A DNA stretch of 64,000 bases from the NCBI GenBank assembly GCA_964016885.1, contig OZ024742.1, positions 31,434,001 to 31,498,000 on the forward strand, in the 5' to 3' direction. Shown in pieces: positions 8,990 to 60,845 of the stretch. The stretch comes from Eledone cirrhosa. Its lineage: Eukaryota. How positions within the stretch are numbered: position 1 is the first letter of the stretch; every line of letters starts with the position of its first letter. A model generated the notes under the pieces. It did not search any database, had not been told where the DNA came from, and was given only the letters and a program-made list of their open reading frames with translations. The position numbers and the translations under genes are program-made.

Positions 8990-9318
8990 TATAAGATCAA
9001 AAGATGGTTAAAGGAGTTCCATGTATTTTATTATGCGCATTTCAAAAACAAACATCATCATGCAATAATATTTGTGTTTTCATCAGATAAAACAGGAGAA
9101 CATGATATGAAGGCTAAAAAACACTTGTGGATAGTGCAGTTTTAAATCAACATATCATATGTTGATTTAAAACTGCACTATCCACAAGTGTTTTTTAGCC
9201 TTCATATCATGTCTTCATGTTTTATCTGATGAAAACACAAATATTATTGCACGATGATGTTTGTTTTTGAAATGCGCATAATAAAATACATGGAACTCCT
9301 TTAATCATCTTTTGTTCT

Positions 9319-13645: not shown

Positions 13646-13676
<31 letters not shown>

Positions 13677-13678
<2 letters not shown>

Positions 13679-16488
13679 AGCCTCCAATAGAAATAGGAAG
13701 GAAAGGGAGTTGGTAGATAGTGTAGAAGAGGCAATTAGAAGCGGCGACGTGGCCAGAGTGCTAGCGTCGAGAACGGCCCTGGGCCAGTTCTTCGACGCGA
13801 AACACGAAGGCTGCATCGTCCGAAGCAAAATACGTGCTCTGGGAAACGAGGGGACCAAAGCTGTTAGCTGGGCCCGCGTGACAGAAGCCAAAAGAGGGAG
13901 CAGATCCACTATCCGGTCTTTGCGAGACCAGGATGGACGGGTGATCCTTGAACCTAAGCAGATGTGCGAGGCTTTTCAAAAGCACTTTGCCGGATTGTTC
14001 GGAAGGGGCGGGGGGCCGGTTGGGGACGTGGACTTCGGTCCATACCTCGACGGCCTGCCGCGTCTCTCGGACAGGGAGGCGAAGTCCTGCGAGGAGCCGA
14101 TTTCAGCCGCTGAGATAGAGGACGTGCTGAGCCAATGCGGCAAACGCAAATCCCCGGGTCTCGATGGTCTTCCATACGAACTATATCTAGCTATGCCGGA
14201 CTTGTTCCCCGAACTCCTCGAGGCGGTCTACTGCAACTGGCAACAGAACGGGAGAATTCCCTGTGCTGTGACCAAGGGCGTAGTCACGCTAGTGAGGAAG
14301 GACGAGAACAAGGGGGACGATATAAATAATTTCAGGCCCATAACTCTGCTAAATACAGAGTTACAGATTTTGGCCAAGGTGCTAGCAAAGAGGTTGGCGC
14401 TTGTCGTGGGCAACCTGGTGGGAGATGCGCAGACATGTGCTATCCCGTCCAGGTCCATCCACGATAACCTCCACCTCATGCGATACATCATAGAGAGGGT
14501 TGGGAACGAACCCGGCTTTGGTGGGGCCCTGATCAACTTGGATCAATCTAAGGCATTCGATAGGGTCGACCATGGCTACCTGGATGCGGTGCTAGCGGCG
14601 GCAGGCTTCGGACCCGTTTTCAGGGGCTGGATCAATGCCATGCACAGCAGCCACATCTGCTCTAGGGTCAAGGTGAACGGCTACCTCTCGGAGCCGTTCG
14701 AAATCGCGCGGTCGATCCGACAGGGGTGCCCTCTCTCCTCCCTTCTGTATGTAATGACTCTAGAGCCACTGCTGCGGAAGTTGGAGTTGTTGCAGGGCAT
14801 CCCGTTGGAACCGGGATTGCGGAAAGCGGTGTCAGCCTACGCCGATGACGTAACAGTAATGGTGTCGACGGCCTCGGAAATCGGGGCGATCGGCACCTTA
14901 CTGGAGGAGTACGAAAGGTTTACAGGGGCTAAGCTGAACCGGGACAAGTCGATCGGTCTGCAACTCGGCACGTGGAGGGGCAGATCGATGCCCTCCGATG
15001 GCGTCGTCGGGCGCTGGACGGAGGGCCCGGTGAAGTTACTCGGGGTCTGGTTCGGACCAGACCTCCAGGTGGAGAAGAACTGGGGTGAGGTGACGAACAG
15101 GGTGTTTGCACTGACCCAGAAGTGGGCCGAGTGCAAACTGTCCCTGAAAGGTCGGGCGGAGGTGGTGAACACTTATATAGCGTCCGTCATCTACTACCGC
15201 CTGACCGTTGTGCCTTGCCCAAGGGAAACGCTCGCCAAAATGGAGCGCGCACTCTTCCAATTCCTTTGAAAGAAGCGGGCTCCTATGGTGAGGAGATCCA
15301 TCTGCTGTCAACACCCTTCGAAAGGAGGGCTGGGGATGCCGTGGCTAATGATACGTAAACACGCATTAAGGCTACGGCACCTTCAGGTATTCCTCTCCGG
15401 TCAACCGGTGTGGGCCCCGTTTGTGAGGCGAGCCTTTCCCAGACTCGTCTCACTCACCGAGCTGCAATCCTGGGTCAAGCAAAGACCGAGAAAACTGGGC
15501 GCCTGGCACACCGCGTGTGCCCAGGCGCTCACGGCTCTCTGGCAGGCGGACCCGGCTGTCAGTGGAGAATCCACCTCGTCATTCTATAGAGGGCTGGTGG
15601 TTAGCAGGTGCGACGACGCCCTCGGAGAAGCCCTAGGCATGGAGGAAGACGAACTGGCCAACCTGTTCGGTAGGACATTCAGCCCGGGACCCATGGATAA
15701 CTTCCAGAGGTCCCTGGCCTGGCAATGCTACAGTAGGGCTCTGCCCGTTCGAGAAAGGCTCTACAGACACGGGCGCCCGGGTAGGGACCCATCGAAAAAG
15801 ATCTGTCCCAGATGCGTGTGCGACGAGGAAACCGTTGCACACGCATTGGTACACTGCTCGGGCATTGCCGATCTGTGGGGCTATGTCGAACAACTGCTGT
15901 CAAGGGTGGAACCGATCCGGTTGACCACCGAATCTATTGTAACGATCAAGCCGCCTCCCCTCTTCAAAAACGAAGGAGAGGCGGTGTTTCTGTGCGTAAT
16001 AGCCATGGCGAAAGAGGTTGTATGGTGGACGCGTCTGAAAGGACTGAGCTCAGACACTTTTCTCTCTGGCCAACAACTGGTCCGTTTCTTCCGATATCAT
16101 TTCGGAAGAAGGATCAGGATGGAGAGAGAGGTGCTGCACCCCAGCCGTTTCTATGAAAGATGGGTGAAAGTGGCGAGAATGGCCCGTGTGAATGGGCCTT
16201 CACTCTACATCAGACTATAGGTGAGGAAGATGAAAGACCAAGGGAGCACCCCTTCTCTGTGCTCCTGAGGAGAAGGGTTGCACACTTTTTTCGCGGGTGT
16301 GTGCGACCCCCAAGGCGCCTCCTCTCTATTGAGGACTTTGTTATAAATTTTATTTTTTGTTATATTTTATTTTATTTTATTTTTATATATTGTTATTGCC
16401 TCCTCCTTATTGAGGACGCCTTGTTTTGTAAACTCTCCCCATTGTACTTGTCCCACTTTTTGATGCCCTGGTGGCAAATAAAAAGAAA

Positions 16489-16692: not shown

Positions 16693-16747
16693 TATTTTGT
16701 CTGATGAGGACGTACTGTTGTACATCCGAAATATGTATAATGAAATG
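16693..16747 (+). ncRNA. Minimal type I HHR preceded by a 50-bp palindrome (16608-16661)
   Basis: tattttgt CTGATGA ggacgtac-tgtt-gtacatcc GAAA tatgta TA atgaaatg. Confidence 0.75.
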
Positions 16748-21067: not shown

Positions 21068-21072
<5 letters not shown>

Positions 21073-22090
21073 AGTATGTATACGTACATACATATATGTA
21101 TACAGACGTACAGTAGTATGTATATATATATATACATACATGCACACATATATATATGTACGTATGGATTCACCGAACATTTATTATAATGCTCGGTGTG
21201 TTTGTAAACAAACATCCCGAATTAAGCCGTACAGTGTCTAGCAACCATCGTTGCTCATTTGTTCAACCCTGACAAAGGAACGCTGTACTAGTTTCAAGCT
21301 TATTAGCTATCTTCAGCAACGTATACCTTCCTGCCAGATGATTGAACGTCTGAAAGTATATACTTTCCTTATGCATATTAACGGCTGAGCAGCCTAATTT
21401 GCATATCGAGTGAGTTAATCGGCCGGGGTACCGAAAACGATAAACGGAAAAAATGAAACGAAATTTCATTTCTCACCCTTAGTACAGCTGTTACTTAAAT
21501 ATAAGTATGTATACGTACATACATATATGTATACAGACGTACAGTAGTATGTATATATTTCATTTCCCACACTTGATACGGGATGTTTGTTTACAAACAC
21601 ACCGAGCATTATAATAAATGTTCGGTGAATCCATACGTACATATATATATATGTGTGCATGTATGTATATATATATACATACTACTGTACGTCTGTATAC
21701 ATATGTGTATGTACGTGTACATACTTATATTTAAGTAACAGCCGTACTAAAAGTGGGAAATGAAATTTCGTTTCATTTTTTTCCGTTTATCGTTTTCGGT
21801 GCACCCGGCCGATTAACCCACTCGATATGCAAATTGGGCTACTCAGCCGTTAATATGCATAAGGAAAGTATATACTTTCAGACGTTCAACAATTTGGCAG
21901 GAAGGTATACGTTGCTGACGATAGTTAATAAGCTTGAAACTAGCACAGCGTTCCTTTGTCAGTGTTGAACAAACGAGCAACGATGGTTGCTAGACACTAC
22001 GGCTTAATACGGGATGTTTGTTTACAAACACACCGAGCATTATAATAAATGTTCGGTGAATCCATACGTACATATTTATATGTGTGCATA
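21068..22090. mobile_element. Family Z HHR element: two opposed partial tandems of an approximately 431-bp monomer
   Basis: Period 431 in both arms; HHRs at 21280-21322 (minus) and 21909-21951 (plus, cleavage-site U mutated to C). Confidence 0.8.
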
Positions 22091-22295
22091 TTTATATGTG
22101 TGCATCTCAAAATTATTTTTGAAAAGCATTAGAAATGCGCAACCGGTAAAAACTTAAAACTAAAACTGAATACTAACCAATACTTATTACTAATTTCTAC
22201 TTATTCCTAATTAAACTATTTTTCACTGGGAACAATTTGTCAGCATTTTCTTTTCCTTTTACTAATATATCACAACTCGTGTGTTACACCTCTAT

Positions 22296-22352
<57 letters not shown>

Positions 22353-28323: not shown

Positions 28324-28388
28324 TATTTTATTATATATATTTCAAGGGCAACCAAGACAACATTGGTGCGCTTTCATCAGATAAAATA
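28324..28388 (-). ncRNA. Minimal type I HHR, family W
   Basis: tattttat CTGATGA aagcgcacca...tggttgccctt GAAA tatata TA ataaaata. Confidence 0.8.
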
Positions 28389-40095: not shown

Positions 40096-40511
40096 AAGAG
40101 TGTGTGTGGGGGGGATGTGTGTATGTGTGTGTGTCAACAAAGAGGATAGGGGTGGGGGCGAACATGCCTGAATGTTTATTAAGTCGATATACACAAATAG
40201 AGTCTAATTATCTCAATATGGCGTCTGGGGTCGAATCTCCAGCTAGCCGTGACCACCCACACATTATCTGAATATAGCGTCTGGGGCTGCAGCTCCAGCA
40301 AGCCGTGACCACCCACTCATTATCTAAATATAGCGTCTGGGGTCGGAACTCCAGCCAGCCGTGACCATTCTCGTGGTTTCATGACTGAAGTGACTAAATG
40401 TTCATCGTTGAAAGCGGTGGAGGACCCGCTTGTAGAAATAGAAGACAGGATCGCCACAGATGGAACGAAATTGATCATACGGTTGATTGAACAGGGCTAA
40501 ACAGCAGCAAC

Positions 40512-40711
40512 NNNNNNNNNNNNNNNNNNNNNNNNNNNNNNNNNNNNNNNNNNNNNNNNNNNNNNNNNNNNNNNNNNNNNNNNNNNNNNNNNNNNNNNNN
40601 NNNNNNNNNNNNNNNNNNNNNNNNNNNNNNNNNNNNNNNNNNNNNNNNNNNNNNNNNNNNNNNNNNNNNNNNNNNNNNNNNNNNNNNNNNNNNNNNNNNN
40701 NNNNNNNNNNN
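40512..40711. other. Assembly gap (200 N)
   Basis: Run of N. Confidence 1.
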
Positions 40712-41532
40712 TGTGTGTGTGTGTGTGTGTTATCTATAGGGGCCTACATCTTACGACCGATTTTCATGAAACTTTACAGGCTCATATATTAGTCATCAGG
40801 GAGTGTTTTCTATATATCAGCGTATCGTTTTTTTTTTTATTCCGGGGTCATTCTGCAGATGAAAATCGACAGGGGGGGGGGGGTCACCTTTTTTTGGGGT
40901 ATCGAAAAATAAGATTTTTGGCTCTAGCTCCCACATTTTGCCACCGATTTCGTTCAAATTTTAAAGCAAAATAGAATTTATCATTGCACATCCTGTAATG
41001 GCTTTATATTTTACATTTGTTGTTCAGGAACGGCGTAGCAGCCGCTTAAATATTCGAAAATACCACCTTTTCGCTCAAATTTCCGTCTTTTCGGCTCTAG
41101 CTCCCACATTTTTTCAACCAATTTCGTTCAAATTCGAAACTTCAGCTCCACCCCACACATAAATCAATTTATTTGGTTCAACTTTTATACTACGATAGAA
41201 CCTATCATTGCACATCTTATAGATGGTCAAAGGCAAAACGATGGCCACTGACGTCGTCTGAGCTTTTAGTTGTGTATTTGAGAATTCATCGGTTTCCAAT
41301 CATGTAGCGTGAGGAAATTTGGCTTAGTGTTAGAGGTCATTACCTCCCTCCCCCAGCATGCCCCTTCGTCAGTCACTCGCGTTACTCAGTGTTAGAGGTC
41401 ATCACCACCCTCCCCCGCATGGTAAGTGTGTGGCCATAGATGAGTCATCGAGAAGCAGTCGCTAAGATCAACACCTTTTCATCAAAGCAGATATTATTTT
41501 ACCTACCCAGGAACGCTGGGTACTGCTGCTAG
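40712..41532 (+). mobile_element. Non-autonomous Helitron (5' end probably in the gap)
   Basis: 3' hairpin acccag-gaacg-ctgggt followed by CTAG|T at 41529-41533; (GT)n then accgattttcatgaaactt near the 5' side. Confidence 0.7.
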
Positions 41533-45122: not shown

Positions 45123-45257
45123 TATATTGTTATGTTGCCAATAAGAAAGCATAACAATATCGGTTTCAACACACGTTTTCAGATAAAGAATCTTGCTAAA
45201 CAAATTCAGAAACGAAATATATACATATATATATATATATGTATATATCATATATAT

Positions 45258-46527
45258 ATAAACGGAAAAAATGAAACGAAATTTCATTTCCCACTCTTAG
45301 TACGGCTGTTACTTAAATATAAGTATGTACACGTACATACACATATGTATACAGACGTACAGTAGTATGTATATATATATACATACATGCACACATATAA
45401 ATATGTACGTATGGATTCACCGAACATTTATTATAATGCTCGGTGTGTTTGTAAACAAACATCCCGTATTAAGCCGTAGTGTCCAGCAACCATCGTTGCT
45501 CGTTTGCTCAACACTGACAAAGGAACGCTGTACTAGTTTCAAGCTTATTAGGTATCGTCAGCAACGTATACCTTCTTGCCAGATTGTTGAACGTATATAC
45601 TTACCTTATGCATATTAACAGCTGAGAAGCCCAATTTGCATATCGAGTGGATTAATCGGCCGGGTGCACCGAAAACGATAAACGGAAAAAAATGAAACGA
45701 AATTTCATTTCCCACTCATAGTACGGCTGTTACTTAAATATAAGTATGTACACGTACATACATATAAGTATACAGACGTACAGTAGTATGTATATATATA
45801 TACATACATGCACACATATATATATGTACGTATGGATTCACCGAACATTTATTATAATGCTCAGTGTGTTTGTAAACAAAAATCCCGTATTAAGCCGTAG
45901 TGTCCCGTATTAAGCCGTAGTGTCCAGTGTTGCTGGACACTACGGCTTAATACGGGATGTTTGTTTACAAACACACCGAGCATTATAATAAATGTTCGGT
46001 GAATCCATACGTACATATATATATGTGTGCATGTATGTATATATATATACATACTACTGTACGTCTGTATACATATGTGTATGTACGTGTACATACTTAT
46101 ATTTAAGTAACAGCCGTACTAAGAGTGGGAAATGAAATTTCGTTTCATTTTTTCCGTTTATCGTTTTCGGTGCACTCGGCCGATTAACCCACTCGATATG
46201 CAAATTGGGCTTCTCAGCTGTTAATATGCATAAGGTAAGTATATACGTTCAACAATCTGGCAGGAAGGTATACGTTGCTGACGATAGCTAATAAGCTTGA
46301 AACTAGTACAGCGTTCCTTTGTCAGTGTTGAACAAACGAGCAACGATGGTTGCTGGACACTACGGCTTAATACGGGATGTTTGTTTACAAACACACCGAG
46401 CATTATAATAAATGTTCAGTGAATCCATACGTACATATATAATATATGTGTGCATGAATGTATATATATATATATATACATACTACTGTACGTCTGTATA
46501 CATATGTGTATGTACGTGTACATACTT

Positions 46528-46530
<3 letters not shown>
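45258..46530. mobile_element. Family Z HHR element: fold-back of about 1.6 and 1.4 copies of a 420-bp monomer
   Basis: Period 420 and 419; inversion centre near 45929; HHRs at 45525-45567 (minus) and 46272-46314 (plus). Confidence 0.85.
46272..46314 (+). ncRNA. Minimal type I HHR
   Basis: acgttg CTGACGA t-agct-aata-agct-t GAAA ctag TA cagcgt; ACTAGT palindrome and GUA triplet. Confidence 0.8.
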
Positions 46531-46623
<93 letters not shown>

Positions 46624-51573: not shown

Positions 51574-51639
51574 TATTTTATCTGATGAAAGCGCACCATA
51601 GTTTGCTCTGGTGGCCCTTGAAATATGTATAATGAAATA
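51574..51639 (+). ncRNA. Minimal type I HHR, family W
   Basis: tattttat CTGATGA aagcgcacca...tggtggccctt GAAA tatgta TA atgaaata. Confidence 0.78.
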
Positions 51640-56852: not shown

Positions 56853-58108
56853 TATAGATATGCCCTAACGTCTTCATTATATATATATTGATGGCCTTGT
56901 GTCAAAAGTGGAAATAATTATATATATATATATATATATATATTTCGTTTCTGAATTTGTTTAGCAAGATTCTTTATCTGAAATCGTGTGTTGAAACCGA
57001 TATTGTTATACTTTGGGAGGGTCATGTTGCCAATAAGAAACACACGCACCAGATGCTTTCACTTCAATTTATTATTATAATAAATTTATAATAAATTTAT
57101 AAATTTATAAATTTCTGGCTGGTTGGTTGGTTCCACAACCAGATAGTTGTTTATATATTGTCATAGTTCTTTCGTCACACACTCTGTGACCTCTTCAGTG
57201 ACTGGGGATTCCTTTCTTTGTTTCTGTACCTCTCTTTTGTTCTGTCCTACGCCATTTTGTTTCTGTGTGTGTGTTGTGTGCTCAGTCTGCGCATGCGCCA
57301 CATCCGGGTGTCTGTGTGTGTTTATGTTCATTTATTTATTTGTTTATTTACATGTTACTGGTTGGTTGTTTGTTCTATGTGTGTGTGTGTTTTCATTTTG
57401 TCCTTAATTGTAAGTTGTGATGTTGCTGTTCCACTCATATTTTCTATTTAATTTTGGTTGTAATTTCGTTTCTGAATTTGTTTAGCAAGATTCTTTATCT
57501 GAAATCGTGTGTTGAAACCGATATTGTTATACTTTGGGAGGGTCATGTTGCCAATAAGAAACACACGCACCAGTTGCTTTCACTTCAATTTATTATATAT
57601 TTATAAATTTACAAATTTACAAACTTATAAATTTCTGGTTGGTTGGTTGGTTCCACAACCAGATAGTTGTTTATATATATAGTCATAGTCCTTTCGTCAC
57701 ACACTCTGTGACCTCTTCAGTGACTGGGGATTCCTTTCTTCGTTTCTGTGCCTTTCCTTTCTTCTATCCTACGCCATTTTGTTTCTGTGTGTGTGTTGTG
57801 TGCTCAGTTTGCGCATGCGCCACATCCGGGTGTCTGTGTGTGTTTGTGTTCATTTTTCTATTTTTCTATTTATATTTTTCTATTTGTTTAGTTATTTATT
57901 TATTTATTGTTGGTTGGTTGTTTGTTCTATGTGTGTGTGTGTTTTCATTTTGTCCTGTGTGTGTTTTCATTTTGTGTGTGTTTTCAATTGTAAGTTGTTT
58001 GTTCTATGTGTGTGTGTGTTTTCATTTTGTCCTTAGTTGTAAGTTGTGATGTTGCTGTTCCACTCATATTTTCTATTTAATTTTGGTTTTAATTCTTTTA
58101 TGCTTACT

Positions 58109-58700
58109 GGAATAGAATAGAAAGAACTAGGAACAAGGCCAATAGAATAAACTCATGGTATGATAGCAATAAATACCAGAGTGTAATGTTCATCAATACA
58201 ACCCCTAGAGGCGAACTAGCCTACAAATTTAGAAGGGCTCTAAATAAACATAATCTCAATATTAAGATAGTAGAAAGACCTGGTACCTCCGTAAAAACAC
58301 TTATTAGCAAGACATACCCGTTCCAAAGACCCTCATGTATAGATAAGAAATGTATAACCTGTAAAATAAGCCTCCATATTAACTGTAAAACTAGAAATGT
58401 AGTGTATAGCATAAGATGTACTGAAGGACAATGTAGAAACAAAAATATAGTGTACATAGGTGAGACAGCTCGTAGTATAGGGGAACGAATAAATGAACAC
58501 TGGCGAGACCTCCAAGATAATAAAGAATCATCTGTGCTCTACCAACATGCTAAGATAGAACACAGGGGTAGATTAGAGAGCATAGAAATAAAAAAAAATA
58601 GAATCCACACACAGAAAAGACGCAATGTTTGGGCAAATTACAGAGGCAGTAAGCATAAAAGAATTAAAACCAAAATTAAATAGAAAATATGAGTGGAACA
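58109..58700 (+). pseudogene. Penelope C-terminal GIY-YIG endonuclease (copy B)
   Basis: NVVYSIRCTEGQCRNKNIVYIGETARSIGERINEH; frameshift at the A-run near 58590. Confidence 0.9.
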
Positions 58701-59030
58701 GCAACATCACAACTTACAACTAAGGACAAAATGAAAACACACACACACATAGAACAAACAACTTACAATTGAAAACACACACAAAATGAAAACACACACA
58801 GGACAAAATGAAAACACACACACACATAGAACAAACAACCAACCAACAATAAATAAATAAATAACTAAACAAATAGAAAAATATAAATAGAAAAATAGAA
58901 AAATGAACACAAACACACACAGACACCCGGATGTGGCGCATGCGCAAACTGAGCACACAACACACACACAGAAACAAAATGGCGTAGGATAGAAGAAAGG
59001 AAAGGCACAGAAACGAAGAAAGGAATCCCC

Positions 59031-59075
59031 AGTCACTGAAGAGGTCACAGAGTGTGTGACGAAAGGACTATGACT
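59031..59075 (+). ncRNA. pLTR hammerhead ribozyme (minus-strand copies at 57681-57725 and 57160-57203)
   Basis: agtca CTGAAGA g gtcac-agagtgt-gtgac GAAA ggac TA tgact. Confidence 0.8.
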
Positions 59076-59235
59076 ATATATATAAACAACTATCTGGTTG
59101 TGGAACCAACCAACCAACCAGAAATTTATAAGTTTGTAAATTTGTAAATTTATAAATATATAATAAATTGAAGTGAAAGCAACTGGTGCGTGTGTTTCTT
59201 ATTGGCAACATGACCCTCCCAAAGTATAACAATAT

Positions 59236-60023
<788 letters not shown>

Positions 60024-60502: not shown

Positions 60503-60845
60503 ATACACAATATATTAATAAATGGAAACTATATTTATAAAACCATATTTATTTTATTATATATATTTCAAGGGCAACCAAGGCAAATTATGGTGCGCTT
60601 TCATCAGATAAAATACAGATTTGTTTTATAAAGAAATATTGACATACCCGGAAAATGACTATCCAGGAAGCTCCAACCGTTAAGGTTGTCTTTTTTCCGG
60701 GTATGTCAATATTTATTTATAAAACAAATCTGTATTTTATCTGATGAAAGCGCACCATAATTTGCCTTGGTTGCCCTTGAAATATATATAATAAAATAAA
60801 TATGGTTTTATAAATATAGTTTCCATTTATTAATATATTGTGTAT
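60503..60845. mobile_element. Family W fold-back with two HHRs (60550-60615 minus, 60733-60798 plus)
   Basis: About 150-bp near-perfect arms; tattttat CTGATGA...GAAA tatata TA ataaaata with 8-bp stem I. Confidence 0.85.

Follow-up and report, generated by a model that had tools for sequence, protein, structure and literature searches.

A non-coding hammerhead repeat of Eledone cirrhosa that carries the insertion pattern of Penelope-like elements

Family Z is a non-coding repeat with a type I hammerhead motif, and it is most probably (about 0.85) a non-autonomous Penelope-like element (PLE) of the kind described as animal non-LTR retrozymes, copied in trans by the reverse transcriptase (RT) and GIY-YIG endonuclease of a PLE. 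The anatomy of its copies, the rule that governs their ends, their target, their copy number and the precise way in which they cross the predicted cut site can be read directly from the genome. Two copies lie in the window, which here means the whole 64,000-nt stretch that was analysed. As an element class Z has already been described; its PLE signature is unusually clean.

Anatomy of the two loci in the window

Monomer positions are counted over 420 nt in the sense of the hammerhead strand, position 1 being the base after the predicted cut (window 46309). A preliminary description of the window had proposed a monomer of 420-431 nt, and periods of 420 nt at locus 2 and 431 nt at locus 1 bear this out. 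Each locus likewise holds, as had been reported, more than one unit in each orientation, and at both loci the arms meet head-to-head at their 5′ ends. The features of the two loci are as follows.

45217..45257: (TA)n-rich target left of locus 2
45258..45905, minus strand: left arm of locus 2, 1.54 units (monomer 47 through 420 to 273), with the tail at its 3′ end (45258)
45258..45316, minus strand: 59-nt tail in the left arm of locus 2, monomer 215-273, between the two fixed 3′ ends
45514..45582, minus strand: left-arm type I hammerhead motif of locus 2, with one broken pair in helix II; the cut is predicted between 45531 and 45530
45906..45928: central junction of both 5′ ends of locus 2, where some 21 nt from the 5′ end of the left arm recur
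45929..46530, plus strand: right arm of locus 2, 1.41 units (monomer 41 through 420 to 213), without a tail at its 3′ end
46257..46325, plus strand: right-arm type I hammerhead motif of locus 2, whose core starts at 46278 and whose cut is predicted after 46308
46531..46599: (TA)n target right of locus 2
21068..21558, minus strand: left arm of locus 1, 1.14 units of a 431-nt subfamily (monomer 155 to 214), hammerhead at 21269-21337; the 3′ end lacks the tail and abuts (TA)n
21559..21571: central junction of locus 1, a short piece resembling another monomer part (read by eye)
21572..22089, plus strand: right arm of locus 1, a different 431-nt subfamily from the left arm, monomer 58 to 144, 1.21 units, hammerhead 21894-21962
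22104..22310, plus strand: PLE piece beside the right arm of locus 1, namely the tailed 3′-terminal 207 nt of a PLE family that has an ORF (other members at L199, L210 and L159), ending at (TA)n

The claim of one hammerhead per arm stands for all four window arms, two of which carry damaging changes in the motif; in the right arm of locus 1, GCA replaces GUA at the cut site. In all four arms, as at 46257..46325, the motif has an extended, bulged helix I, helix II has 4 bp, and helix III is a palindrome of 2 bp. The monomer also lacks a credible ORF, as was first thought: sense frames reach at most 51 aa, the lone antisense frame of 105 aa is without a Pfam match, and Z units hold no RT plus GIY-YIG ORF.

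Elsewhere in the window, further hammerhead motifs of unrelated families are encountered at 9032-9280, 16701-16739, 28332-28380, 51582-51631 and 60558-60790, two of them as short inverted pairs. A non-LTR retrotransposon RT gene (13647-16220; RVT_1, E 8e-26) is interrupted by one stop codon, and an assembly gap (a run of N) spans 40511-40713.

The hammerhead motif

Rfam gives no hammerhead match in the window at the gathering threshold, nor at E up to 1, where only hairpin-type matches well below threshold appear, mostly to microRNA models on a TA-rich segment; the hammerhead call therefore rests on motif, pairing and covariation. Among eight aligned copies of Z and its relatives, 97% of 176 cells are paired and two helix I pairs change on both sides. 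The covariation score was equalled by 3 of 500 shuffles, in a set of related sequences whose structure was drawn from one among them, and lends modest support to the hammerhead structure. Core and cut-site letters are undamaged in 150 of 176 motif matches. The hammerhead fragment alone folds no better than its shuffles (z = -1.2). Folded as a circle, the monomer reaches -140.5 kcal/mol versus -95.2 +/- 5.8 kcal/mol in shuffles, with none of 60 shuffles as good.

At the base of helix II the Z hammerhead has U opposite U, instead of the G10.1-C11.1 pair that PMC4209133 gives for most hammerheads, so that cleavage may be weak, and by analogy with the hammerheads discussed in the same source the 2-bp helix III suggests dimer-dependent cutting. 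The U opposite U is common to Z, its sister family Z′, a 310-nt repeat and one ORF-bearing PLE family; besides Z itself, it was seen at L196:3336 (-) and L176. Two PLE families possess, as read by eye, a hammerhead-shaped motif with an altered core (window 22117-22152; 3′ regions of L193, L199 and L210). The alteration looks like a U3-A8 swap of the C3-G8 pair.

Two fixed 3′ ends, one per arm

The preliminary description noted start and end points that differ between arms and loci, and proposed that endpoints be mapped onto the monomer. The resulting map covers 178 arms at 107 loci, comprising 30 best-match loci (both window loci included), 47 tail-pattern loci and 30 hammerhead-pattern loci, the latter two sets chosen by position. 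Three loci of two long arrays and arms touching a locus edge were left out; the best-match and hammerhead-pattern sets favour arms that cross the hammerhead, and the tail-pattern set favours arms that hold the tail. The inner 5′ ends are scattered over the whole monomer, as the earlier claim implies, but the outer 3′ ends are not variable: 83 arms end at 273 (264-274) and 58 at 214 (208-218), 59 nt apart, which places 141 of 178 at a canonical site and leaves 37 elsewhere. Of the four arms in the window, all but one have their 3′ end at 214 or 273. A (TA)n run lies next to the 3′ end in 72 of 83 arms ending at 273 and 47 of 58 ending at 214 (119 of 141 in total), and in 13 of the 37 others. 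Several non-canonical ends, though not all of the 37, reflect internal deletions or expanded TA runs in arms that still finish near a canonical end. Target-site duplications are unreadable inside (TA)n runs.

The two ends are apportioned between the arms of a pair. Among 55 inverted pairs, 38 combine 214 with 273, two are 273 with 273, none is 214 with 214, and 15 include a non-canonical end; when two duplicated pairs are counted once, the mixed type makes up 36 of the 38 pairs with two canonical ends (P about 3e-9 if half were expected). Genome searches for each end plus (TA)n gave 2,340 and 3,471 exact matches, and among the matches listed (62 and 100 places, in the first 86 Mb of C1) diverging neighbours no more than 5 kb apart are mixed in 17 of 17 cases, 11 of these pairs being new and 6 overlapping the first sample. 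A few pairs (L061, L084 and L091) fold back at palindromes. A tail on one arm only, as in PLEs, supports the Penelope-type integration that had been proposed for the inversions.

Head-to-head inversions can also be produced by twin priming, which predicts one fixed and one variable outer end. Z could on this basis be a SINE-like element moved by a LINE (RTE, CR1 or L1-Tx1), and LINE RT genes are indeed present in the window (13647-15269); however, both outer ends are fixed in Z, which has neither poly(A) nor a LINE-type 3′ end, and this origin is very improbable.

Copy number, relatives and arrays

Within the 3.0-Gb host assembly, exact matches number 6,640 for a tail-derived 30-mer and 8,684 for the core of the hammerhead, an abundance that is not due to chance because the reversed controls give 0. 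Three contig sets (from another or the same organism) also contain Z pieces. Sequences diverge by 1.8% inside an arm, by 2.2% from arm to arm and by 4.8% from locus to locus. Z is a real, abundant and fairly young family.

The sister family Z′ (about 460-500 nt; L099:7598-8652, L163-L192, L203) has 11,786 exact matches to its own 26-mer. It shares the hammerhead scaffold of Z, keeps both fixed ends and includes inverted pairs; double changes between the two families preserve helix I pairing, and Z′ positions 29-117 are remodelled with similar hairpins retained. Older, intermediate forms are seen at L204 and L013. A third non-coding hammerhead repeat, of 310 nt, occurs as inverted partial multimers ending at (TA)n (L176:1900-3026; L120:560-1190).

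The median length of the 178 arms is 1.06 units, and 18 exceed 2 units. At least two consecutive hammerhead-bearing units occur at L061, L091, L093, L096 and others, although not at the two window loci. Satellite-like arrays of about 50 units (G000:C1:51772400-51793800) and more than 43 units (G000:C28:36065100-36083400) were described from the spacings of anchor motifs, and the former has a higher-order period of 1,713 nt (four units). At L091 an ABAB array has alternate units that are identical across the first seven. A heterodimer circle was considered as its origin and rejected, as the opposite arm has private changes and misses some of the rare alleles. Both this ABAB array and the four-unit period of 1,713 nt on C1 indicate that growth took place later, at the DNA level.

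Arrays of more than 40 units with higher-order periods are what would be expected if Z were a satellite or minisatellite spread at the DNA level, by rolling-circle DNA or unequal exchange, with a vestigial hammerhead. Growth of this type accounts for the arrays but not for dispersal: most copies are short and lie apart from one another, their ends are polar, their 5′ ends vary in position and they obey the tail rule strictly, and helix I covaries between families. For the dispersed copies the two-end rule refutes a satellite origin, which as a general account of Z is highly improbable.

The template: circle or multimer

The predicted cut site is crossed by 135 of 178 arms, with exact spacing in 158 of 159 crossings, and 5′ ends fall at positions 1-3 in 1 of 178 arms and at positions 1-20 in 13 of 178 (P = 0.08). 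Because arms cross the cut site precisely and 5′ ends are not piled there, we reject the idea that the main template is a cut linear monomer; support goes to a template that exceeds one cut monomer in length, as was initially supposed. Circular permutation of the arms had been put forward as a sign of a circle, and this argument does not hold: the 3′ ends are fixed at two sites, and partial tandems of 1.x units with an inverted 5′-truncated arm are an ordinary PLE pattern in the accounts given by PMC8557442 and PMC3846280. A circular RNA is not required by the insertion pattern.

The two arms of a pair agree at 278 of 316 subfamily sites versus 183 expected, and pairs therefore usually come from one source. 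Subfamily switches inside an arm are seen at L076 and L063.

If Z is indeed a PLE-mobilized retrozyme, its template may be a monomer that the hammerhead has cut out and ligated into a covalently closed circle, around which the RT rolls. This version, to which somewhat less than an even chance is given, would explain the exact crossing of the cut site and would suit a monomer that folds so much better than its shuffles as a circle. At L093 the opposite arms hold 3.7 and 5.0 units whose nine passes are nearly identical, with three rare alleles common to both arms, and at eight loci one rare allele is found in every pass of an arm; identical units can also be explained by young uniform arrays or by assembly polishing. 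Comparable repeats yield circles in coral, mussel and axolotl, according to PMC7229834. On the other hand, the same partial tandems are made by ORF-bearing PLEs, the L091 ABAB array looks like later DNA duplication, and alleles at L116 and L063 stand in unit-specific phase, as expected of a mixed multimer. In vitro, the insertion reported in PMC11167929 did not need hammerhead cutting, and only 1 of 9 frog retrozyme dimers treated in bioRxiv 10.64898/2026.07.22.740005 was cleaved. The evidence on circle versus linear multimer is mixed, and the circle of the preliminary description, which predicted an RNA of about 420-430 nt, is possible.

PLEs of the genome and the search for a helper

The GIY-YIG search returned 10,597 candidates, of which 150 were scored, and 20 long-ORF loci yielded several families with RT plus GIY-YIG. 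Most of these appear Neptune-like by a motif noted in PMC8557442, an assignment made without a tree. Open frames of 938, 844 and 1,096 aa that end in a GIY-YIG domain mark L193, L194 and L195 as candidate intact PLEs. ORF-bearing PLEs of this genome have (TA)n ends at two sites about 35-61 nt apart, their inverted copies (L207, L198 and L210) consist of one tailed and one tailless arm, and they also make partial tandems with an inverted 5′-truncated arm.

One such element, at window 57400-59900, is 5′-truncated, with GIY-YIG ORF pieces at 58093-58680 (+) and 59393-59890 (-), inverted pLTRs, a hammerhead at about 59036 and a tail on one arm. Directly left of locus 2 (45130-45220) there is also a tiny stub of this element, in inverted orientation. 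The element's tail matches that of Z in length (56 by one rule) and the two have no sequence in common; as a helper of Z it is a weak lead only. No ORF-bearing PLE with sequence common to Z or Z′ was found in 65 PLE-bearing loci, which are a small part of the 10,597 candidates and many of which have incomplete 3′ regions.

Z copies could alternatively be the broken-off pLTR ends of an undiscovered autonomous PLE, so that no independent non-coding family would exist. Short inverted pLTR stubs of ORF-bearing PLEs, such as that beside locus 2, are common in this genome, and just 150 candidates of the GIY-YIG search were scored. Yet in 27 of 45 tailed arms, from a sample not selected for the junction, 273 continues through 274-420 into position 1, leaving no room for an ORF. 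Copies joined to a Penelope ORF at a fixed boundary, which the preliminary description regarded as contrary to its proposal, were looked for in the 5′ flanks of 68 single Z arms, and none of the flanks enters a shared ORF. A derivation from pLTR ends is largely refuted and very improbable. Shared flank sequence was also considered as a parent PLE and rejected, the three pairs found representing a Z relative and two other repeats, all without an ORF.

The chimera at locus 1

The right arm of locus 1 halts at 144 and then, via a short duplication, enters the last 207 nt of an ORF-bearing PLE. The PLE piece is up to 97% identical to other copies and finishes at the tailed site of that PLE family, and the left arm is tailless. 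This arrangement fits a single event with template switches, which would name the helper PLE; it also fits a later deletion between adjacent insertions, as L071 seems to show. Subfamily alleles of the two arms agree at 3 of 13 sites, so not every pair derives from one RNA. Being one of 37 non-canonical ends, the chimera is a lead to the mobiliser only.

A model for Z insertion

From the pattern of the insertions we infer transcription, ribozyme activity, priming, the form of the template and a helper PLE, in the following manner. A multi-unit Z locus would be transcribed, and the PLE protein would bind the structured Z RNA and nick both strands of a (TA)n run. One 3′-OH would then prime at 273 and the other at 214, on RNA whose hammerheads are uncut, be it a multimer made by read-through or a circle closed again by ligation. 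Synthesis of each cDNA would stop at a random point, and the two stops would be joined, mostly with an overlap of a few bases or filler. The outcome would be either a single arm or two arms joined head-to-head, only one of them with the tail, and at least some long arrays would grow afterwards via DNA-level duplication. A purified PLE protein, in the experiments described in PMC11167929, extends both strands; its two start sites lie inside the RNA and delimit the genomic tail. PMC3846280 offers another explanation of inversions, namely self-priming on an antisense template.

Comparison with known systems

Z conforms to the description of a retrozyme, being a non-coding tandem unit in the range of about 150-450 nt with low GC and no LTR. 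It resembles the animal non-LTR retrozymes presented by Cervera and de la Pena in 2020 (PMC7229834) and by Li, Clavereau and Pollet in 2026 (bioRxiv 10.64898/2026.07.22.740005), which are low-GC non-coding repeats of a few hundred nt with thousands of copies, a type I hammerhead with a short palindromic helix III, a range from monomers to long arrays, and PLEs in the same genome. In contrast to these, most Z copies span 0.3-2 units and have a single hammerhead in each arm, Z gave no match in sequence to a PLE pLTR, and its RNA and circle are predicted. The available text of those two sources describes neither a two-end tail rule nor inverted pairs.

With the insertions of endonuclease-bearing PLEs, as portrayed in PMC8557442 and PMC3846280, Z has in common 5′ truncation, partial tandems, head-to-head inversion, a tail on one arm and an AT-rich or (TA)n target, and like Poseidon of Anolis in vitro (PMC11167929) it has two start sites downstream of the hammerhead. 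Unlike these PLEs, Z is without an ORF, and its tail is 59 nt long versus the 30-40 nt given in those sources (about 35-61 nt in the PLEs of this genome). Non-autonomous Chlamys elements, for example MRC1 of Chlamydomonas, are also non-coding dependants of PLEs, with pLTRs and multicopy head-to-tail insertions; unlike Z, they generally have 3′ sequence in common with an autonomous family, and their clade is without canonical hammerheads, as far as the account in PMC8557442 extends. The literature search, which covered few subscription journals and did not extend to Repbase, found no paper on family Z or on a retrozyme with a tail rule; this does not prove that none exists.

Published links between animal retrozymes and PLEs, in the sources named above, consist of shared hammerheads, co-occurrence and pLTR similarity. 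Z is a retrozyme-type repeat that bears the mechanical fingerprint of PLEs itself, in the form of two internal start sites, one per arm. A more speculative scheme, which is possible but doubtful, is that one PLE complex grips a single hammerhead-made circle at two sites and primes on both nicked (TA)n strands, rolling in parallel, and that the locus 1 chimera names the helper PLE, its RT having switched from its own RNA to Z RNA. If this were true, thousands of Z insertions would be a record of circle-templated, double-primed retrotransposition. Since its RNA would be 420 nt long, priming is predicted at two sites and the target is known, Z would offer a compact test substrate for inverted PLE insertion and for the circle as template.
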